From a virus (lineage: Duplodnaviria > Heunggongvirae > Uroviricota > Caudoviricetes), in the IMG/VR virus record IMGVR_UViG_2693429623_000005, positions 1-7,031 of that record: DNA of 7,031 bases; one strand, written 5' to 3'. The notes beneath the pieces were generated by a model. The model was given only the letters and a program-made list of their open reading frames with translations, had not been told where the DNA came from and did no database searches. This document shows positions 1 through 7,031 of this stretch, piece after piece (within the stretch, counting starts at the first letter, position 1; the number at the start of each line of letters is the position of its first letter). A program made the position numbers and the translations under genes.

Positions 1-138
1 TGCAGAGGCGTTCGAGCATTATAACGAATGGCATCCGCATAGTGCACTGGGTTATCGCTCGCCACGGGAATATCTACGGCAGCAAGCCAGTAATGGGTTA
101 AGTGATAACAGGTGTCTGGAAATATAGGGGCAAATCCA
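1..138 (+). mobile_element. IS2-like (IS3 family) insertion sequence, transposase-proximal terminus only; body of element lies upstream of window
   Basis: 117..138 (tggaaatataggggcaaatcca) is the exact reverse complement of 7010..7031. Sequence upstream of it encodes a transposase C-terminus. The terminal sequence matches my recollection of the IS2 right inverted repeat (one mismatch at ~105). Confidence 0.85.
2..127 (+). CDS. insD: IS3-family DDE transposase OrfB, C-terminal 41 codons (5'-partial)
   Basis: Frame 2 reads [41 protein letters not shown] then stop at 125..127. The HYN..RPHS.LGY..P.EY motif is the conserved C-terminus of IS3-family transposases. Confidence 0.8.
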
Positions 139-246
139 GCGTTCATCAGCCCCCGCATTGCCGACAGGATCACAGACGGGGGGCGCAACTGGTTGTCGTT
201 CAACTGGCCCAGCTACCGTTCTTGTATCAGAGGTGTGGCTGCATGA
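139..246 (+). pseudogene. 3' remnant (35 codons) of the gene upstream of the helicase, probably the replication initiator, truncated by the IS
   Basis: Open frame from the IS junction (139) to TGA at 244..246, which overlaps the helicase ATG (ATGA coupling). Identity as an O-like initiator is inferred from position only. Confidence 0.35.
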
Positions 247-1634
247 CAACACCAGTCTGGCGTAATGATGACCTGGAAGGCGCTGTCATTGGCGCATTCT
301 TTCTGCGTGGGGCAGATCATGAAGTGATGGATATTCTGATCACACTACCGGCGGACATTTTTTCTGTACGAGCGTATCGGGATATCTACACAGGCATCTG
401 CAGACAGGCCCGTGTTTCAGGAGTGATTGACCCCGTGCTGTTGTGTAATGAGATGCCGGAACTTGCCCCGGTGATTACTGATACCGGGCGTAAAACCTGG
501 GTGAAGTCTTCACTGGAGCACTATGTTGCAGCGTTGCGGCGCAATGCCGCACTGCGCGATGCAGAAAAAACACTGAATGAGGCGCTGCAGAAATTACGTG
601 ATGCGCATACCTGTGAAGCAGCTGAAGATGCCCTGAAGGATGCGCAGAACATGATGGTCACACTGTCGACAGGAAAGGGCGTCATTCAGCCGGTACATAT
701 TGATGATGTGCTTCCGGAAGTGGTTGAGCGTGTTGAATGCCGGAATCAGGGGCTGGAGAAATCCAGGACGTTGATGACCGGTATTGATGAACTGGACGCA
801 AAAACAGGCGGTATGGAGCCCGGAGACCTGGTATTCATTGCCGCCCGTCCTTCGATGGGGAAAACCGAACTTGCGCTGGACATCATCGACAAGGTGACTG
901 AGCAGGGGCATGGTGTGCTTCTGTTCACCATGGAGATGGCGAACATCCAGATTGGTGAACGTATGGTGTCTGCGGCTGGAGGGATGCCAGTATCACGCCT
1001 GAAATCTGTGGCTCACTTTGAAGATGAAGACTGGGCGCGTTTCTCACAAGGGGTGGGGCGGATGACCGGGCGCAATATCTGGATGGTGGACCAGGCGAAC
1101 CTGACCATTGATGAGATATGCGCAACAACGAAACACCATCTGATTAAACATCCGGAAACGGCGCTGGTGGTGGTTGATTATCTCGGGCTGATAAAAACCC
1201 GAACCACGGGGCGTCATGACCTTGCCGTGGGTGAAATCTCAAAGGGGCTTAAAGGCCTGGCAAAATCCGGTGGTTTTCCGTTGATTGCGCTGAGCCAGCT
1301 CTCCCGCGGTGTGGAGTCCAGACCCAATAAACGTCCCATGAACTCAGACCTGAAAAATTCCGGAGAAATAGAGGCGGATGCAGACATCATTCTGATGCTT
1401 TACAGGGATGAAGTGTACAACCCGGATACACAGGCTACAGGCATAGCAGAAATTAATATCACGAAACAACGTAACGGTTCTCTGGGGACGATTTACCGGC
1501 GTTTTTATAACGGACATTTTCTGCCTGTGGACCAGGAAAGCGCACAGGTTCTTTCCACCCCAATGCGGCAGCCCCAGCCGCGCAGATACAGCAATACACG
1601 TACCGACAGCAGTAAGATGGAGCGTTTCTTTTGA
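243..1634 (+). CDS. DnaB-family replicative DNA helicase (phage-encoded, P22 gp12-like), 463 aa
   Basis: Walker A ARPSMGKT, Walker B LVVVDYLGL, and SQLSRGVESRPNKRPMNSDLKNSGEIEADADIILMLYRDEVY, which closely matches the DnaB C-terminal motor. N-terminal domain LEGAVIGAFFL is DnaB-like. ATG at 243 chosen over the GTG at 102 in the ORF track, which would run into the IS end. Confidence 0.93.
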   Translation: MTTPVWRNDDLEGAVIGAFFLRGADHEVMDILITLPADIFSVRAYRDIYTGICRQARVSGVIDPVLLCNEMPELAPVITDTGRKTWVKSSLEHYVAALRRNAALRDAEKTLNEALQKLRDAHTCEAAEDALKDAQNMMVTLSTGKGVIQPVHIDDVLPEVVERVECRNQGLEKSRTLMTGIDELDAKTGGMEPGDLVFIAARPSMGKTELALDIIDKVTEQGHGVLLFTMEMANIQIGERMVSAAGGMPVSRLKSVAHFEDEDWARFSQGVGRMTGRNIWMVDQANLTIDEICATTKHHLIKHPETALVVVDYLGLIKTRTTGRHDLAVGEISKGLKGLAKSGGFPLIALSQLSRGVESRPNKRPMNSDLKNSGEIEADADIILMLYRDEVYNPDTQATGIAEINITKQRNGSLGTIYRRFYNGHFLPVDQESAQVLSTPMRQPQPRRYSNTRTDSSKMERFF

Positions 1635-1888
1635 ACAACCAGACAATGACTTTTACCTCTGAACAATTGCGTAAACACGCGCAGGAAATGTTGCGACAGG
1701 CGGAACAACTGGAAAAAACAGGTGTAACAAAAGATGCCATTCGTCGGGATATGGTGCCAGCGCTCAGGGAACTGATGCAGGCGAAACATCGCGCACAAAA
1801 AGCGGTGGATGAGCTCGTTGATTGTGTGGCAGAGCTGGAAACCAAAGTTGGAAAGTTTGAAAAAATGGTGCAGGAGGTGCTGCGCTGA
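1631..1888 (+). CDS. hypothetical small protein, predicted helical/coiled-coil (85 aa from TTG at 1631; alternative ATG at 1646 gives 80 aa)
   Basis: ORF fills the helicase-rusA gap exactly. Its TTG overlaps the helicase TGA, and its stop overlaps the rusA ATG (TGATG). Heptad-like charged sequence. No family recognised. Confidence 0.5.
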   Translation: MNNQTMTFTSEQLRKHAQEMLRQAEQLEKTGVTKDAIRRDMVPALRELMQAKHRAQKAVDELVDCVAELETKVGKFEKMVQEVLR

Positions 1889-2259
1889 TGCGCCATGAGT
1901 TTATTTTACCTTATCCGCCGACGGTGAATACTTACTGGCGACGTCGTGGCAGCACATATTTTGTATCAAAAGTTGGTGAGCGTTATCGCCGTGATGTGAC
2001 GCTAATTGTTCGCCAGCAGCGGCTGAAATTAAACCTGTCCGGAAGGCTGGCGATAAAGATTATTGCAGAGCCACCGGATAAGCGCCGTCGTGACCTGGAC
2101 AATATCCTGAAAGCACCACTGGATGCGCTGACGCATGCCGGACTACTCATAGACGACGAGCAGTTTGATGAAATCAATATTGTGCGCGGTCAGCTCGTTC
2201 CTGGTGGGCGACTGGGCGTGAAGATTTATGAAATCACAGGTGATAACGATGGCGCGTGA
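1888..2259 (+). CDS. rusA: RusA-family Holliday junction resolvase, 123 aa
   Basis: [16 protein letters not shown] ... [30 protein letters not shown] ... [11 protein letters not shown] matches the E. coli RusA pattern including the acidic catalytic residues (RRDLDN, DD). Start is coupled to the upstream stop. Confidence 0.9.
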
Positions 2260-2635
2260 TATTCAGCAGGTTATGGAACGGTGGGGGGCTTGGGCTGCAA
2301 ACACTCATGAAGATGTATCCTGGGCGTCGATCGCTGCTGGTTTTAAAGGGTTAATTCCGTCGAAAGTGAAATCACGCCCTCAGTGTTCTGATGATGATGC
2401 AATGATAATTTGTGGCTGTATGGCCCGGTTGAACAAGAAAAATCAGGATTTGCACGATTTGCTGGTGGATTATTACGTAGGTGGAATGACTTTTATGAGT
2501 CTGGCACGGAAACATGGGTGTTCGGATACCTGTATTGGCAAGCGCCTGCAGAAAGCGGAAGGGGTTATTGATGGCATGTTGATGATGCTTGATATCCGGC
2601 TGGAGATGGACAGATACGTAGAACGAATTATGTAG
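2249..2635 (+). CDS. late-gene antiterminator Q, Q933/QuuD type, 128 aa
   Basis: [17 protein letters not shown] ... [20 protein letters not shown] ... [23 protein letters not shown] matches the small Q family of Stx phages and DLP12 QuuD as I recall it. Lies directly after rusA as in DLP12. ATG at 2249 has an AGGTGA RBS 5 nt upstream; the ORF-track start at 2228 is also possible. Confidence 0.7.
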
Positions 2636-2639
2636 GTGC

Positions 2640-2669
2640 TTGACCAGACACATTGTCCGGGGCTATATT
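2640..2669 (+). promoter_or_regulatory. sigma70 promoter candidate immediately downstream of Q (PR'-like): TTGACC-18 bp-TATATT
   Basis: -35 TTGACC at 2640..2645 and -10 TATATT at 2664..2669, starting 5 bp after the Q stop. This is the position of the late promoter in lambdoid phages. Confidence 0.45.
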
Positions 2670-2730
2670 CCTCACGCGCCAGCAAAATCTGGCGTCGGGA
2701 TTGGAACCCCGGATAGAGACCGCGACAGAC

Positions 2731-2752
2731 ACACGCCGCGAGCGTGTTTTTT
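2731..2752 (+). terminator. intrinsic terminator candidate (tR'-like), about 80 nt downstream of the promoter at 2640
   Basis: Stem acacgc (2731..2736) / gcgtgt (2742..2747), loop cgcga, followed by a T-run (2748..2752) then att. Confidence 0.5.
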
Positions 2753-2880
2753 ATTGTCGTATGCACGCGCACATCTGAATTATGGTGGGGCGCATGGGGG
2801 AGCTGAAAAGCTCGCCGGTCGGTTTCCCGGTAGTTCCAACCCTGTGCGTCTCACCACCCGATGATTGGAACCTGACGGTG

Positions 2881-2909
2881 TTGACAGTTTCAGGTTTGCA
2901 GTTTACATT
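2881..2909 (+). promoter_or_regulatory. second sigma70 promoter candidate: TTGACA-17 bp-TACATT
   Basis: Perfect -35 TTGACA at 2881..2886, 17-bp spacer, -10 TACATT at 2904..2909. Confidence 0.35.
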
Positions 2910-2944
2910 TCCCCGCGGTGCTCAAAACACCTCGAAAGCGGTAT

Positions 2945-2972
2945 CCACACCCGATAGCCATGTGGTTTTTTT
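2945..2972 (+). terminator. weak intrinsic terminator candidate, about 55 nt downstream of the promoter at 2881
   Basis: 5-bp stem ccaca (2945..2949) / tgtgg (2961..2965) with an 11-nt loop, followed by seven T (2966..2972). Confidence 0.3.
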
Positions 2973-3115
2973 GTGTCCAGAATTCTTGGTTTATGACCGG
3001 GTGTGCGGCTAATACAATACCAGCAATGGAAATACGCCCGCCGACTTTCGACGGTTTTGAGCGCCCGGTCACCCTCTCAAAAGGGGTAAATCAAAATATT
3101 CGAAAGGACATGTCT

Positions 3116-3607
3116 ATGAATCGCACGTCTATTGAAAAACTCCCGTCACTTACGCATAACCATCTTCCTGTCATGACAACAGAGCTGCTGGCTGATTTGT
3201 ACGGAACAGAGCGCCAGCGTTTGACAAACAATTTCAATCGAAACAAAGAACGGTTTATAGAAGGTAAACATTTTTTCCTGATAGAAGGTGATGCGTTACG
3301 AGAGTTGAAGAACGAAAACTCTTTAAGAGTTTCTGTGAAAATTGCCCGTAACGTTCGCTCCCTCATCCTCTGGACAGAACGTGGCGCAGCCCGTCACGCC
3401 AAAATGCTCGAAACCGATCAGGCGTGGGAAGTGTTCGAAAAACTGGAAGACTGTTATTTCAACCAGAAACAGCCACCAGCGGCACAAAACACATCTATCG
3501 AAAATGATGGATGCGCATTACTGAGCCACTTCGATAAACACGGTCAGGTTGAGTTCACGGAAAAGGTACCCCGCCGATGCGATGGTATGTACTCTGGAAC
3601 GGTTTAA
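3116..3607 (+). CDS. ORF6N-domain protein (phage antirepressor-like DNA-binding protein), 163 aa
   Basis: PVMTTELLADLYGTERQRLTNNFNRNKERFIEGKHFFLIEGDALRELK ... LWTERGAARHAKMLETDQAWEVFEKLEDCYF fits the ORF6N pattern. AAAGGA RBS 7 nt before ATG 3116 (ATG 3110 also in frame). The ORF-track GTG start at 2918 is rejected. Confidence 0.7.
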   Translation: MNRTSIEKLPSLTHNHLPVMTTELLADLYGTERQRLTNNFNRNKERFIEGKHFFLIEGDALRELKNENSLRVSVKIARNVRSLILWTERGAARHAKMLETDQAWEVFEKLEDCYFNQKQPPAAQNTSIENDGCALLSHFDKHGQVEFTEKVPRRCDGMYSGTV

Positions 3608-3619
3608 ATTTTATCTGGA
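3582..3619. repeat. 38-bp perfect direct repeat R1, copy a (atggtatgtactctggaacggtttaaattttatctgga)
   Basis: Identical to 5533..5570. Overlaps the last 26 nt of the ORF6N gene. Confidence 0.9.
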
Positions 3620-3631
3620 AGGATTCTGAAG

Positions 3632-3919
3632 ATGAAAATCGAAGAATTGCGTGAAATTTTTAGTGAAAATGGCCTCTATGCTGTGCGCGTTGAGAATGGA
3701 GCGATTGTCAGCCATTGCCGCATTAGATGTTTGCAATCTCAACAAAGGAAGAGCGGTGCTGTGTTATTTTATTTTTGTAATGGACTTCTGACGGACGGTT
3801 TTATTTTGCGTGAGGACGAATTTGTCACATCATTACGGGTTTTGAAAGAGATTGGTTTTAAGGCTGGTTTTCTGCTTTTGCTGAAGAATAAACTCATCTA
3901 CAATCTTGAGCAGGATTGA
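3632..3919 (+). CDS. hypothetical protein, 95 aa, no family recognised
   Basis: ORF with an AAGGA-type RBS. No competing ORF on the minus strand. Confidence 0.55.
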   Translation: MKIEELREIFSENGLYAVRVENGAIVSHCRIRCLQSQQRKSGAVLFYFCNGLLTDGFILREDEFVTSLRVLKEIGFKAGFLLLLKNKLIYNLEQD

Positions 3920-3957
3920 ACTCCTGCTGTGTAACACCGTGCCACCGGAGAAAGCCG

Positions 3958-4557
3958 ATGGCACATATACAACTGGTCAAACAAACCTCTTCCGGATTAC
4001 TTCTCCCGGCGACGCCGGAGAGTTGCGATTTTCTGCATCAAATCAAAATAGGTGAGTGGATACACGCAGACTTTAAGCGTGTGTGTAACTACGCATTCCA
4101 CAAGCGTTTTTTCAAACTCCTGCAACTGGGTTTCGATTACTGGACTCCGGTCGGTGGGGCGATCACGCCTCGCGAACGAAAACTGGTGTCCGGTTTCGTT
4201 GATTACCTGTGTGAATCAGTAGGCCGGGAACATACGCCAGCTCTGAGCGAAGCCGCAGAGCAATATCTGAATACAGTTGCGACACGCAGAACCAGTGATA
4301 CGGCATTGCTAAAGTCGTTTGAGGCTTTCCGCGAGTGGGTAGCCATTCAGGCCGGATTTTACACCGAGCATTTTTATCCGGACGGTAGCCGTGGGTGTCG
4401 GGCGAAATCTATCGCGTTTGCGAATATGGACGAAACCGAGTTTCAGCAGGTTTATAAATCTGTTCTGAATGTGCTGTGGAACTGGATTCTGTTCCGTAAA
4501 TTTTCCTCTCCGGAACAAGTCGAAAATGTGGCCGCGCAGCTGCTGGAGTTTGCGTAA
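3958..4557 (+). CDS. lambdoid nin-region-type protein, DUF1367-like (about 200 aa), function unknown
   Basis: ATG 3958 with GGAG RBS (ORF-track TTG at 3916 possible). Stop TAA overlaps the next ATG (TAATG). Size and sequence fit my recollection of the DUF1367 family that sits next to YbcO-like genes; the family name is recalled, not searched. Confidence 0.65.
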   Translation: MAHIQLVKQTSSGLLLPATPESCDFLHQIKIGEWIHADFKRVCNYAFHKRFFKLLQLGFDYWTPVGGAITPRERKLVSGFVDYLCESVGREHTPALSEAAEQYLNTVATRRTSDTALLKSFEAFREWVAIQAGFYTEHFYPDGSRGCRAKSIAFANMDETEFQQVYKSVLNVLWNWILFRKFSSPEQVENVAAQLLEFA

Positions 4558-4847
4558 TGGTGGATTTACGTAAAGCGGCGCGGGGGCAGATGTGCACCGT
4601 CAGAATTCCTGGCTACTGCAATCACGATCCGGAAACGTCTGTGCTGGCGCATTACCGACTGGCGGGAACGTGCGGAACAGCGATAAAGCCACACGATATG
4701 CAGGCAGCGATTGCCTGTAGCTCGTGCCACGATTTAATCGACGGGCGGGTAAAAACCAGCGATTACACCAAAGAAGAATTACGCCTGATGCATGCAGAAG
4801 GTGTTTTTCGCACACAAGAAATCTGGAGAAAGGAGGGATATTTATGA
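4557..4847 (+). CDS. YbcO-like protein (DUF1364), putative Zn-binding nuclease, 96 aa
   Basis: MVDLRKAARGQMCTVRIPGYCNHDPETSVLAHYRLAGTCGTAIKP ... IACSSCHDLIDGR resembles DLP12 YbcO as I recall it, with a Cys-rich C-x7-C ... C-x2-C pattern. Coupled to neighbours on both sides. Confidence 0.7.
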   Translation: MVDLRKAARGQMCTVRIPGYCNHDPETSVLAHYRLAGTCGTAIKPHDMQAAIACSSCHDLIDGRVKTSDYTKEELRLMHAEGVFRTQEIWRKEGYL

Positions 4848-5398
4848 TTTACCCAACGAATACAGGAAAAAGCGGAGAACACCTTCGTCTCACCACGCTG
4901 GAAAGTGTCTGGATTCAGGGAAAACTACGTATGTGGGGGCGCTGGTCGTATATTGGTGGCGGTAAGACGGGGAATATGTTTAACCTGATGTTGACCTCTA
5001 AAAAGCTGACAAAAACGGCAATTAACGAGGCGCTCCGGAGGATGAAAAAAGCAGGTCTGAACAAGTCTGAACTTGAGGCTTTTTTGCGGGATATGATTAA
5101 CGGTAAGCAAAAGAGCTGGCTGGCGCATTGTACTGATGCAGAGGCGTTATGTATTGATCGGGTCATAAGTGAGGTGCTGGCAGAGCATCCAGGATTGATT
5201 AGCGTCCTTCGGCAACGGTATGAGGGGCGGGGGATGACCAAACGCAAAATGGCTGAACTGCTGAATGATGCACACCCGAAATGGAGTTTAAGAACCTGTG
5301 AAAGACGCATTGAGCATTGGCTAAAGGTGGCAGAATTTATTTTGTACAAACCAATGGTTATGGCTTTTGGTATAGAGAAAAAAGTTATTGCTTTTTGA
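4844..5398 (+). CDS. 184-aa protein with a C-terminal sigma70 region-4-like helix-turn-helix; candidate transcriptional regulator
   Basis: Strong RBS AGGAGGG (4831..4837) and ATG 4844 overlapping the upstream stop (ATGA). C-terminal VLRQRYEGRGMTKRKMAELLNDAHPKWSLRTCERRIEHWLKVAE resembles ECF-sigma/LuxR-type HTH. It is the last gene before the terminators and tRNAs, the usual place of Q. Confidence 0.65.
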   Translation: MIYPTNTGKSGEHLRLTTLESVWIQGKLRMWGRWSYIGGGKTGNMFNLMLTSKKLTKTAINEALRRMKKAGLNKSELEAFLRDMINGKQKSWLAHCTDAEALCIDRVISEVLAEHPGLISVLRQRYEGRGMTKRKMAELLNDAHPKWSLRTCERRIEHWLKVAEFILYKPMVMAFGIEKKVIAF

Positions 5399-5477
5399 CG
5401 TAAAAACTGCTTCAATTCTTGTACGCTTCGCAAAGCTGTACCGCGAGGCGAATAGCAGACATGGACATTTGAAAGAG

Positions 5478-5499
5478 CCCGCTTTATGCGGGTTTTTTT
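5478..5499 (+). terminator. intrinsic terminator T1
   Basis: Stem cccgc (5478..5482) / gcggg (5488..5492), loop tttat, then seven T (5493..5499). Lies 80 nt after the stop of the 184-aa gene. Confidence 0.6.
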
Positions 5500-5531
5500 A
5501 TACCTGAAAAACGGCACAGGACGTTAAACGT
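5488..5531. repeat. 44-bp perfect direct repeat R2, copy a (gcgggtttttttatacctgaaaaacggcacaggacgttaaacgt)
   Basis: Identical to 5721..5764. Comprises the 3' arm and T-run of a terminator plus a 32-bp tail. Confidence 0.9.
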
Positions 5532-5532
5532 A

Positions 5533-5570
5533 ATGGTATGTACTCTGGAACGGTTTAAATTTTATCTGGA
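5533..5570. repeat. R1, copy b
   Basis: Identical to 3582..3619. Begins 1 nt after the end of R2 copy a. Confidence 0.9.
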
Positions 5571-5631
5571 GCAACACGGGTGGATCGTTGCCCGTAAAGA
5601 GCAACTGGTGGAGCGGTTGATGCGGTTTTAA
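5533..5631 (+). CDS. possible 32-codon ORF starting at the ATG inside R1 copy b (MVCTLERFKFYLEQHGWIVARKEQLVERLMRF)
   Basis: Open frame only; weak RBS (AGGACG, 10-nt spacing). The same ATG in R1 copy a opens a 15-codon frame ending 2 nt before the 95-aa gene. Confidence 0.2.
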   Translation: MVCTLERFKFYLEQHGWIVARKEQLVERLMRF

Positions 5632-5706
5632 AAATTTTTTCCGAAAACTTTACGATCGTAAAAAGTTGAATATCCTGTTAAGAGTGGTTACTACGCCACA
5701 CAGCTT

Positions 5707-5732
5707 AAACCCGCCGATGAGCGGGTTTTTTT
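5707..5732 (+). terminator. intrinsic terminator T2
   Basis: 8-bp stem aaacccgc (5707..5714) / gcgggttt (5721..5728), loop cgatga, T-run 5726..5732. Confidence 0.65.
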
Positions 5733-5764
5733 ATACCTGAAAAACGGCACAGGACGTTAAACGT
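5721..5764. repeat. R2, copy b
   Basis: Identical to 5488..5531. Followed directly by GCTGGTGG (5765..5772). Confidence 0.9.
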
Positions 5765-5782
5765 GCTGGTGGTCAGATGAGT

Positions 5783-5811
5783 TTGCAGATGTGATGACAT
5801 ATGGTTATTAT
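5783..5811 (+). promoter_or_regulatory. sigma70 promoter candidate for the tRNA cluster: TTGCAG-17 bp-TATTAT
   Basis: -35 at 5783..5788, -10 at 5806..5811. Predicted start is 2 to 3 nt before the first tRNA. Confidence 0.4.
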
Positions 5812-5820
5812 TCTGCCTCC

Positions 5821-5897
5821 GGCCCTTTAGCTCAGTTGGTCAGAGCGAGCGACTCATAATCGCCAGGTCGCTGGTTCAAGTCCAGCAAGGGCCACCA
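5821..5897 (+). tRNA. tRNA with anticodon CAU, Ile2 (lysidine) type, ileZ/ileX-like; 77 nt with encoded CCA
   Basis: Cloverleaf folded by hand: acceptor ggccctt/aagggcc, D-stem gctc/gagc, anticodon loop cuCAUaa, T-loop ttcaagt. Overall close to E. coli ileX as recalled, hence Ile2 rather than Met. Confidence 0.85.
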
Positions 5898-5898
5898 A

Positions 5899-5975
5899 CC
5901 ACCACTAGCTCATCCGGATAGAGCATCAACCTTCTAAGTTGACGGTGCGAGGTTCGAGTCCTCGGTGGTGGGCCA
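5899..5975 (+). tRNA. tRNA-Arg (anticodon UCU), 77 nt with encoded CCA
   Basis: Acceptor ccaccac/gtggtgg (7 bp perfect), anticodon stem tcaac/gttga, loop cuUCUaa, T-stem cgagg/cctcg with loop ttcgagt. Confidence 0.8.
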
Positions 5976-5977
5976 GC

Positions 5978-6053
<76 letters not shown>

Positions 6054-6056
6054 TAT

Positions 6057-6131
<75 letters not shown>

Positions 6132-6745
6132 GCGAGATTTGAGACGAAGGTTGTTATTTGCACTGACACAATATTGTGTGGGAATGTCTGACTCCTTACC
6201 ATCTCCTGTTCTGTGATGTTGTTTTGTTGCAGTTCCAGTGCTCTTTTTTCAGCACCAGAATGGTGCATTGTCGGTCAGGTTACGTAGTGAACCTCTGGCA
6301 GGGGACTGATAATGCATCATTCTGGTGTTGTAAATATCTCTTCGGACAACTTACAAAATATTCTAAGCAAACCCCGGGAACACACTCTTAACTGCCTTGG
6401 CTGGCGGTTTTTTGTACAGCGCTCGGTATGTGTGAGCTGGAAATCAGATTTTGCATGGACTGGAATCATGCTGTTATTTAGGGGCGAAGAACTGGCTTTT
6501 TCTTCCGCCTTCTCACCAGTAACGATTAGAAAAATAATGAAATGCCCCCCTCCGGGGAGGAGGACCGTAGAAAAAAGGACCCGCCAGCAAAAACATTGGG
6601 GATGAACAGCTTTCGCTACTCAGATTGCTGGCGGGTAAAGTTCCTCATGAATTAAGAATGCTACGCGATCTTTTTTAATGGAAATGAAAATTATTGTCAA
6701 TTAGTCGTGCGTGTTTTTTCATACAATATTGGTAAAGGTGATTCA

Positions 6746-6776
6746 GGCCATCAGAGTTTTGCTGATGGCCTTTTTT
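6746..6776 (+). terminator. strong intrinsic terminator 36 bp upstream of the holin start
   Basis: Perfect 9-bp stem ggccatcag (6746..6754) / ctgatggcc (6762..6770), loop agttttg, T-run 6771..6776. Confidence 0.7.
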
Positions 6777-6811
6777 CTTTCCGATAGCACAGGTCTGTCG
6801 GGGGGCGGGAT

Positions 6812-7009
6812 ATGTATCAGATGGAAAAAATATCAACAGGCATTGCCTACGGCACCTCCGCCGGCAGTGCCGGCTACTGGTTTTTGCAGTGGTTGGATCA
6901 GGTCAGTCCATCACAGTGGGCTGCGATTGGTGTGCTGGGAAGTCTGCTTCTGGGGCTTCTGACTTATCTGACGAATCTGTATTTCAAAATAAGAGAAGAT
7001 AAGCGTAAG
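6812..7009 (+). CDS. S: S21-like class II pinholin with dual start (Met1/Met4); native frame interrupted after codon 66 by the IS terminus at 7010
   Basis: Translation [66 protein letters not shown], then the frame continues into IS sequence (WICPYIS) with no stop before the window end. Matches the phage 21 S21 68/71 holin as recalled. Missing from the ORF track because there is no in-window stop. Confidence 0.8.
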
Positions 7010-7031
7010 TGGATTTGCCCCTATATTTCCA
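7010..7031 (-). mobile_element. IS2-like terminus of a second copy in inverted orientation; element continues beyond the window
   Basis: tggatttgcccctatatttcca is the exact reverse complement of 117..138. Confidence 0.85.

Follow-up and report, generated by a model that had tools for sequence, protein, structure and literature searches.

At the late promoter PR' of phage lambda, the Q binding element is positioned in the spacer between the −35 and −10 sequences, and a −10-like element is present at the transcription start. A canonical Q cassette is built from a Q gene, its promoter PR', a pause element, a terminator, and the late genes (10.1101/651190). The fold of the Q protein of phage 21 (Q21) is related to region 4 of sigma factors (sigma R4), and Q21 and Q933W are grouped in one protein family, PF06530 (Yin, Kaelber, Ebright; bioRxiv 10.1101/651190). 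Here, we describe a 184-amino-acid DUF1133 protein, named Q2, that is encoded on a 7,031-bp stretch of DNA (IMG/VR virus record IMGVR_UViG_2693429623_000005; hereafter the window), which represents the entire draft contig CXCR01000186.1 of the Shigella sonnei assembly GCA_001259815.1. With a probability of roughly three in four, we judge Q2 to be a Q-type late-gene antiterminator of a DUF1133 subfamily that forms a divergent branch of the Q21/Q933W proteins. As an uncharacterised member or subfamily, Q2 falls within a known kind of Q protein, and others have already predicted it as such: a homologue is called 'antitermination protein Q' in several GenBank phage records, and the label 'DUF1133 (Q antiterminator HHPred)' has been used (PMC8136144). 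New in the present analysis are the map of its qut site, the pairing of recognition helix and promoter spacer, the reassignment of a second terminator-like hairpin, and the origin of the mosaic in which the gene resides.

Residues 1–176 of Q2 cover the entire Pfam profile DUF1133 (PF06576; profile positions 1–176 of 176) with a score of 356.7 bits at a cut-off of 23.1 (E = 2e-107). A weaker match, which still exceeds the gathering score (29.4 bits vs. 26; E = 8e-7), connects the protein with PF06530 ('Phage antitermination protein Q'), and in PHROGs it belongs to phrog_753, 'anti-termination protein Q-like'. No NCBIfam model matched Q2, and at E ≤ 0.01 Pfam gave no match to the families of lambda Q (PF03589) and of Q82 (PF06323); phmmer searches with lambda Q and YdfT picked up no DUF1133 open reading frame (ORF). 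The exact Q2 protein is recorded on at least 995 contigs under the source names 'DUF1133 family protein [Shigella sonnei]' or 'Late gene regulator'. Its ATG start codon (4844) overlaps the stop codon of the preceding YbcO-family gene (ATGA), and Q2 is the last protein-coding gene ahead of the terminator T1, the terminator-like hairpin T2, and the four tRNA genes that lie in front of the holin gene (Table 1). A first-pass annotation of the window had listed this 184-codon gene, located in the Q position, as a candidate late regulator; its position and the DUF1133 and PF06530 matches bear this out, and among the Q-family profiles it is that of Q21/Q933W, and not those of lambda Q or Q82, to which the protein belongs.

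The kinship with Q21 is visible at several levels. When the Protein Data Bank (PDB) was searched with the single Q2 sequence, the phage 21 Q protein was the sole match (E = 4e-4), and a profile built from 68 DUF1133 members (39–85% identical to Q2) matched Q21 (PDB 6p18/6jnx) at E = 6e-9 over residues 13–35 and 56–154 of its 162 residues. Individually, 67 of 68 diverse DUF1133 members matched PF06530 at E < 1e-3, the best of them at 3.6e-12. The DUF1133 profile also aligned (hhalign) with the second, Q933-type Q protein encoded upstream in the window, named Q1, at E = 1.5e-5 and 26% identity over 86 columns. Q2 possesses both the sigma-R4-like core and the N-terminal helix of the Q21 fold; in its AlphaFold2 (AF2) model, the two helices of the helix-turn-helix (HTH) motif are separated by a turn of five residues (144–148). 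The combination of regions 2 and 4 that marks sigma-70 and extracytoplasmic function (ECF) sigma factors was not found in Q2 with the Pfam models Sigma70_r2 and Sigma70_r4. The C-terminus had previously been read as an HTH resembling sigma70 region 4, and this reading is correct; it had also been taken, tentatively, as a departure from the Q933 architecture, which it is not, because the Q21/Q933W fold is itself sigma-R4-like and Q2 is a remote homologue of both Q21 and Q1.

To place the gene in a wider context, we inspected about 150 DUF1133 loci, 80 of them from IMG/VR and 59 from species-representative genomes, along with phages. The complete genomes of four phages (Providencia PSTCR8lys, Edwardsiella EPP-1, Klebsiella KpF5, and E. 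coli Rac-SA53) all have DUF1133 as the closing gene of the early-right operon, where it is preceded by RusA, KilA-N, DUF968, or DUF1367/YbcO genes and followed, after a gap of 170–450 bp, by tRNA, toxin, or lysis genes. A Pfam scan of ten PSTCR8lys genes flanking DUF1133 revealed no other Q family. DUF1133 is normally the sole Q-like gene, in the Q position, since a phmmer screen seeded with Q933-type Q, lambda Q, and YdfT recovered a second Q-like gene in only 3 of the approximately 150 loci; as the YdfT seed proved to be lambda-Q-like, this screen covers the Q933 and lambda types. In two of the three loci (L084 and L085), the second Q is a 177-amino-acid PF06530-like ORF situated 4 kb upstream, and in the third (L126) it is a lambda-Q-like fragment. 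Between the PF06530-like Q gene and the hok-DUF1367-YbcO-DUF1133 block of L085, three genes (234, 142, and 365 amino acids) are present on the minus strand (1997–4153), which may represent a defence or moron island within the nin region. DUF1133-type Q genes have toxin genes on their downstream side in a Salmonella prophage (an artA-like ADP-ribosyltransferase gene; L110, 9128–9892) and in E. coli Rac-SA53 (eplBA, pertussis-like, and LT-IIa toxin genes; L104, 5992–7223), and DUF1133 has been noted in 13 Shiga toxin (Stx) phages (PMC8136144). DUF1133 is still listed as being of unknown function in Pfam and RefSeq, yet it occupies the Q position of many Enterobacterales prophages, in some of them with toxin genes directly downstream; if our reading is true, toxin and lysis expression in such phages hinges on an unexamined Q subtype.

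The DNA following Q2 has the layout of a Q cassette (Q gene, promoter, −10-like element, terminator, then late genes), with the regulatory part located at 5388–5499; judged by its sequence, the Q2 gene together with PR', the pause-like hexamer, and T1 is a canonical Q cassette. The predicted PR' consists of a −35 sequence TTGCTT (5388–5393), a 17-nt spacer with a TG dinucleotide (5408–5409), and a TG-extended −10 sequence TTCAAT (5411–5416). The final codons of the gene overlap this promoter, which becomes visible only through comparison with relatives; in the first-pass annotation, no convincing sigma70 promoter had been seen between the gene and T1, a statement that no longer holds. In distant relatives, plain sigma-70 promoters straddle the stop codon (Providencia, TTGACT-16-TATAGT; Yersinia, TTGACT..TATGAT; Serratia, TTGACT..TAAATT), and the E. 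coli and Klebsiella classes align with these as TTG(C/A)TT or TTGCAA, 17 nt, and TT(C/G)AAT with TG at −15/−14. Across 87 non-redundant DUF1133 contexts, each gene end carried a promoter-like site matching at least 7 of 12 positions (at least 8 of 12 in 64 contexts). A TANNNT hexamer followed 4–7 nt beyond the −10 sequence in 75 of the 87 contexts (exactly 5 nt in 56), 71 of these 75 having the form TA[ACGT]GCT, and an intrinsic terminator was present in 81, its stem ending at a median position of +71 (range 53–103).

A sigma-R4-like protein next to a weak promoter could also act in another way, namely by binding to the spacer or the −35 region and recruiting RNA polymerase, so that Q2 would be an activator and not an antiterminator. 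The E. coli-class promoter is indeed weak (−10 TTCAAT, −35 TTGCTT) and was missed by a consensus scan, the fold of Q2 resembles sigma region 4, and the conserved spacer element offers a place where an activator could sit. The near-consensus promoters of the distant relatives (TTGACT-16-TATAGT and similar) need no activator, however; the terminator 53–103 nt downstream and the −10-like element at the start, in the 81 and 75 of 87 contexts given above, are hallmarks of antitermination; and Q21, the nearest relative of Q2 in both fold and sequence, is a proven antiterminator. We consider an activator of this kind very unlikely.

The leader RNA predicted to precede the T1 stop contains a feature of its own. 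Of 41 diverse leaders, most have a stem-loop, or DNA palindrome, in the corresponding position, beginning 3–5 nt into the leader, and it recurs in three unrelated sequence classes (GCUUCGC..GCGAGGC, CUGCGCG..CGCAAGGCAG, and GCUCGG..CUGAGC). Its thermodynamic z-scores are modest (median −1.5), and we therefore treat the hairpin as an unexplained and not as an established RNA element. Positions 5425–5498 of the leader gave a weak isrK-like Rfam match (19.9 bits, E = 0.65). The known Q-loading models, those of Q21 and lambda Q, include no 5' leader stem-loop, unlike the DUF1133-type leader.

A possible contact site of Q2 emerged when recognition helices and promoter spacers were compared in 51 distinct helix/spacer pairs from several leader classes and genera. 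The helix class TCE[STN]R was accompanied by the spacer core TTGCGCG in 13 of 13 pairs, T[CYH]Q[ND]R by T[AG]CCGA[AT][AG]AA in 8 of 8, TCRRR by TGA[GA]C[CA]A in 15 of 19, and TCE[RK]R, the class to which Q2 belongs, by ACG..TAAAC in 7 of 9; none of the 51 pairs carried the motif of another class. Within a class the promoter spacer is conserved, and every one of these pairings extends over more than one leader class and genus. The spacer tracks the helix and not the leader, as the leader TAGGCTCGGGACG occurs with either a TGAGCCA or a TTGCGCGG spacer. Since the recognition-helix class co-varies with the spacer, these sequences suggest a Q-binding element in the −35/−10 spacer at about 5394–5410.

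Several points weigh against our reading of Q2 and its cassette. The N-terminal half of the Q2 model has low confidence (predicted local distance difference test, pLDDT, 29–72), and the long minor-groove loop of the Q21 HT[loop]H motif is absent, Q2 showing a 13-residue gap in relation to Q21; Q1 likewise aligns without a long loop, so that this loop may be specific to Q21. A two-subsite direct-repeat Q-binding element (QBE), which in Q21 comprises two 8-bp subsites, is not evident at the Q2 cassette. A generic sigma-70 scan found no promoter between Q2 and T1 (the same scan missed T1 too), and the E. coli-class −10 sequence TTCAAT lacks the near-invariant A at −11. The helix and spacer motif classes were set post hoc on related sequences, and the helix codons are only about 100 bp from the spacer, so linkage could contribute to their association. 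Furthermore, a literature search, in which a single paper (PMC8136144) mentioned the family, found no experimental work on any DUF1133 protein, and in its present host Q2 sits in a remnant bounded by insertion sequences (IS), where it may not be expressed.

Table 1. Features of the 7,031-bp window.
Feature	Position	Strand	Remarks
DUF1133 gene, named Q2	4844–5398	+	184 aa; remote Q21/Q933W antiterminator superfamily member
Ribosome-binding site AGGAGG	4831–4836	+	7 nt upstream of Q2 ATG; sequence reading
HTH codons (residues 133–174)	5240–5365	+	AF2 helices 133–143 and 149–174, high pLDDT; aligned with Q21 HT[loop]H region, loop 13 residues shorter
Putative recognition helix, residues 149–160 (LRTCERRIEHWL)	5288–5323	+	Class co-varies with promoter spacer
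Predicted late promoter PR', DUF1133 type	5388–5416	+	Alignment with relatives' sigma-70 promoters
Promoter spacer, candidate Q-binding element	5394–5410	+	Core GACGTAAAAAC 5397–5407; co-variation with recognition helix
−10-like hexamer TACGCT, candidate sigma-dependent pause element	5422–5427	+	About −1 to +5; 5 nt past −10
Predicted leader RNA, ~77 nt	5423–5499	+	RNAfold −30.3 kcal/mol; 5' stem-loop and terminator
Leader 5' stem-loop	5424–5431 pairs with 5443–5450	+	RNAfold
T1 intrinsic terminator, tR' of DUF1133 cassette	5477–5499	+	GCCCGC-TTTAT-GCGGG and T7
Q1, upstream Q gene, Q933 type, 128 aa	2249–2635	+	PF06530 E = 3e-52; longest ORF from 2228
Q933-type PR' candidate, cognate of Q1	5649–5676	+	TTTACG 5649–5654, 16-nt spacer, TATCCT 5671–5676
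Terminator-like hairpin T2, in Q933-type leader	5707–5732	+	
immI-like antirepressor module between Q1 and its PR'	2640–3607	+	P1 immI-like / Gifsy-1 isrK-orf45-anrP-like (compare PMC4825925)
isrK promoter TTGACC-18-TATATT	2640–2669	+	
isrK RNA	2676–2752	+	Rfam 77.5 bits
c4-a1b1 targets	2663–2715	+	Rfam
C4 antisense RNA	2778–2861	+	Rfam
sRNA-Xcc1	2995–3078	+	Rfam
ORF6N antirepressor gene	3116–3607	+	Frameshifted at 3572
Locus-B-derived segment (Rem, DUF1367, YbcO, DUF1133, PR', T1) inserted in locus A	3620–5532	+	blastn
38-nt duplication flanking insert	3582–3619 (copy 1), 5533–5570 (copy 2)	+	Repeat search family D3, 100% identical
Orphan ORF6N 3' end, 32-aa ORF	5533–5631	+	Starts with second 38-nt copy; C-terminus of 187-aa ORF6N in locus A
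Four tRNA genes: CAT (Met or Ile2), Arg-TCT, Thr-TGT, Gly-TCC	5821–6131	+	ARAGORN, Rfam, RefSeq annotation of identical stretch
Class II holin gene, 5' part, cut by IS end	6812–7009	+	First late protein gene

The family, fold, and position of Q2, the conserved order of promoter, −10-like element, and terminator, and the way in which each leader type pairs exclusively with one type of Q (see below) are the observations on which the following scheme is based. In its native Rac-like lambdoid phage, Q2 would be the last gene of the early-right operon, and a constitutive sigma-70 promoter would lie over its last codons. RNA polymerase would start near position 5423 and would be expected to pause as sigma re-binds the −10-like TACGCT; when Q is lacking, transcription would stop at T1, leaving the approximately 77-nt leader. 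Through its sigma-R4-like HTH, Q2 may bind the element in the promoter spacer and load onto the paused polymerase, which would then read through T1 and all later terminators into the tRNA and lysis genes. In the window, where two further terminator-like sites precede the holin gene, such read-through would have to pass T1, T2, 6390–6409, and 6745–6771 to reach it. There, the Q2 cassette sits inside a Q933-type late region, that of Q1 with its PR' and hairpin (5649–5732), so that two heterotypic cassettes precede one late operon. In principle, one Q of the two would suffice to open the late region of the window, because polymerase modified at either PR' would cross everything downstream.

The assignment of the two terminator regions to the two Q genes rests on comparisons with other phages. 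Q1 is 79–82% identical at the amino acid level to the Q proteins of Stx2a phages and of phage 434, so that the label 'Q933-type', already given to the upstream gene in the first-pass annotation, is fair. Its candidate cognate promoter is far from the gene: positions 5649–5737 of the window align with the stretch that directly follows Q in the Stx2a phage VT2phi_272 (84.6% identity over 91 nt). The PR' start of Stx phages has been mapped and described as 'closely associated with Q' (Sy et al., PMC7547250). In VT2phi_272, TTTACG-16-TATCAT appears where the 258-nt transcript from PR' to tR' would need to start, which is our reading of the sequence and not a mapped site. Among 10 loci whose sole Q is of the Q933 type, 8 contained the motif TTTACGATCGTAAAAA, the two exceptions being short contigs, whereas it was present in none of 153 loci with only DUF1133; conversely, the DUF1133-type leader motif was present in 129 of the 153 DUF1133-only loci and in 0 of the 10 Q933-type-only loci. 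This split of leader motifs by Q type, together with the VT2phi_272 homology, assigns T1 to Q2 and T2 to Q1. The earlier proposal that two late regulators stand in series in the window thus survives, each with its own cognate promoter-terminator cassette, but the promoter and terminator of Q1 are not those at 2636–2760, as had been supposed: that region encodes the isrK RNA of an immI-like module, and the Q933-type PR' homologue is the one at 5649–5737. We considered the isrK promoter and terminator (2640–2752) as the qut site of Q1 and rejected it as the primary one in view of this Stx2a PR' homologue; the isrK-C4-ORF6N module moreover occurs without an adjacent Q (L003) and also between DUF1133 and PR'.

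Both PR' candidates carry the octamer CGTAAAAA in their −35/−10 spacers (5399–5406 in the DUF1133 type; 5657–5664 in the Q933 type), which hints that the two qut sites may descend from a common ancestor or may be cross-recognised. Because this core is shared, it is conceivable that one Q loads at both PR' sites. A reading that joins such a coupling of the cassettes (one Q acting at both PR', or Q1-modified polymerase expressing Q2 late) with a requirement for the leader stem-loop, as RNA or palindromic DNA, in loading seems to us improbable as a whole; if true, it would amount to a feed-forward or cross-specific late switch.

The antirepressor module itself separates a Q gene from the PR' of that same Q in two contexts: with the Q933-type gene in the window, and with the DUF1133 type in loci L095–L098, where the DUF1133-type PR' follows the DUF1133 stop codon by 900–1080 nt, beyond isrK-C4-ORF6N. 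The DUF1133-type leader hence keeps company with DUF1133 despite a separation of about 1 kb. In Salmonella Gifsy-1, the isrK module lies directly downstream of AntQ (PMC4825925). The ORF6N gene of the window carries an extra C at 3572 (CCCC vs. CCC in complete genomes), by which its product is shortened from 187 to 163 amino acids, and this variant is recorded for the window contig only.

How two Q cassettes came to lie in one segment can be traced by blastn. Window positions 1–3619 and 5533–7009 correspond to one locus of complete genomes ('locus A'; L015; e.g., CP032523.1, 99.7–99.97%), and positions 3610–5531 are 100% identical to another ('locus B'; L007/L010), the 1913-nt B insert falling within the 3' end of the locus A ORF6N gene. 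Locus A contains, in this order, an IS, helicase, RusA, the Q933-type Q, the isrK module, PR'/T2, tRNAs, holin, lysozyme, and terminase, while locus B contains hokD, Rem, DUF1367, YbcO, DUF1133, PR'/T1, and tRNAs. The companions that DUF1133 brought along in the window are Rem (PF27490; 3632–3919), DUF1367 (3958–4557; PHROG label 'NinB/Orf recombination mediator'), and YbcO/DUF1364 (4557–4847; 'HNH endonuclease'). In complete genomes, the two loci are apart by about 1 Mb (in CP104423.1, A near 0.92 Mb and B near 1.99 Mb). Exact look-ups for the tandem arrangement returned only the window contig, and among complete E. coli genomes none covered at least 80% of the window. By this comparison, the tandem layout is a mosaic and not a designed two-step circuit, because the arrangement is unique to the window contig and its parent loci are separate in complete genomes; it is probably a one-off. 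What is unusual in the window is only the placement in tandem with a Q933-type cassette; the gene family itself is ordinary, and the prophage is decayed.

The same data raise the question of whether the join exists in a cell at all, or whether mis-assembly or gap-filling connected the prophage remnants A and B of one S. sonnei genome, which share downstream sequence. IS repeats bound the window, which makes up a complete draft contig, the two loci are far apart, with each represented in about 3,700–4,300 index blocks of the gene-position collection, and the products that mark the junctions (the 163-amino-acid ORF6N variant and the 32-amino-acid orphan ORF) are recorded for this contig only; the lack of a complete E. 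coli genome with at least 80% coverage and the homopolymer difference at 3572 (CCCC vs. CCC), which adjoins junction 1, point in the same direction. On the other hand, both junctions hold sequence found in neither parent, namely the 38-nt duplication and, at junction 2, an A at 5532 where both parents have a G, and a de Bruijn mis-join could not have generated them. Junction 1 coincides with a 10-nt microhomology (TTTATCTGGA), a feature expected of illegitimate recombination; the gene-position collection lists the window contig for two samples; and two Q-like genes in one prophage are also present in L084/L085. The novel junction sequences favour a real recombination event, and the uniqueness of the contig favours caution as to a rare recombinant versus an artefact of assembly or gap-filling; on balance, we think an artefact unlikely, while taking it seriously. 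In biological terms the tandem arrangement carries little weight, but it offers a ready substrate for tests of cross-specificity between Q subtypes.

The state of the prophage bears on a further interpretation, in which Q2 is a vestigial passenger, neither Q cassette works in the IS-riddled Shigella remnant, and the arrangement has no regulatory role. The window ends (117–138 and 7010–7031) are inverted copies of an IS3-family terminus (TGGAAATATAGGGGCAAATCCA; 22 of 22 positions complementary), which resembles the right end of IS2. These copies, at which the contig breaks, enclose a 6.9-kb prophage segment and cut the helicase gene at its 5' end and the holin gene at its 3' end. Neither the early promoters upstream nor the replication region is left, the holin is truncated, the ORF6N gene is frameshifted and interrupted, and locus B is interrupted by IS elements at several places in complete S. 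sonnei-type genomes. Set against this decay, about 1,000 contigs carry the DUF1133 ORF in intact and identical form, its promoter, leader, and T1 show 100% conservation relative to locus B, and AntQ of Gifsy-1, a different Q-like prophage protein, alters host transcription when expressed (PMC4825925). For the remnant in this host, we regard the odds of a merely vestigial arrangement as even.

Some features of the late region deserve separate mention. The tRNA at 5821–5897 has a CAT anticodon and was called Met by ARAGORN and tRNA-Ile in the RefSeq annotation of an identical stretch (L001); presumably, it is a tRNA-Ile2 of the lysidine type, as is ileZ in Stx phages. A promoter-like sequence, TTTGCA-18-TATTAT (5782–5811), immediately precedes the tRNA cluster, and for the Sakai Stx2a phage a tRNA promoter located between tR' and stx2 has been described (Sy et al., PMC7547250). 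Past the tRNAs, positions 6246–6334 contain an unexplained imperfect inverted repeat with 31-nt arms (84% complementary, 27 nt between the arms), for which the Rfam matches to microRNA families were sub-threshold.

For the DUF1133-type antiterminators as we read them, the analysis provides a map consisting of promoter, pause element, terminator, and candidate binding site, along with helix-to-spacer pairings that are testable by swapping. Among the described systems, Q21 (PDB 6P18, 6JNX; PF06530) is the one to which Q2 is most readily compared. Both proteins combine an N-terminal W-G-x-W helix with a sigma-R4-like DNA-binding module, and downstream of both genes come a promoter, a −10-like element, and a terminator; besides lacking the 13-residue HT[loop]H loop and an evident two-subsite QBE, Q2 differs in that its W-G-x-W helix and core are separated by about 30 additional residues, which are modelled with low confidence. 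The Q933W-type Q of Stx2 phages, to which Q1 belongs, shares with Q2 the PF06530 superfamily, the short HTH turn, and CGTAAAAA in the promoter spacer, but is shorter (128–144 vs. 184 amino acids). The leaders of the two types differ (DUF1133, TA.GCTTCGCAAAGC...; Q933-type, ..TAAGAGTGGTTAC...), and their promoter motifs are mutually exclusive across loci. Lambda Q (PF03589) resembles Q2 in genomic position and predicted logic, without sequence similarity and with a different fold (10.1101/651190). AlpA of Pseudomonas aeruginosa (PDB 7XYB) is far more distant from Q2 than Q21, with no match at the sequence level. AntQ of Salmonella Gifsy-1 is, as a Q-like prophage protein encoded directly upstream of an isrK promoter (PMC4825925), placed like Q1 and the DUF1133 genes of L105, L110, and L095–L098. 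The size of the antQ deletion (678 bp) and the Salmonella locus L110 had led us to consider that AntQ might itself be a DUF1133 protein, an idea that we rejected, as the antQ cloning primer (1544) encodes MNTQYLQ: AntQ is a distinct protein of about 225 amino acids.

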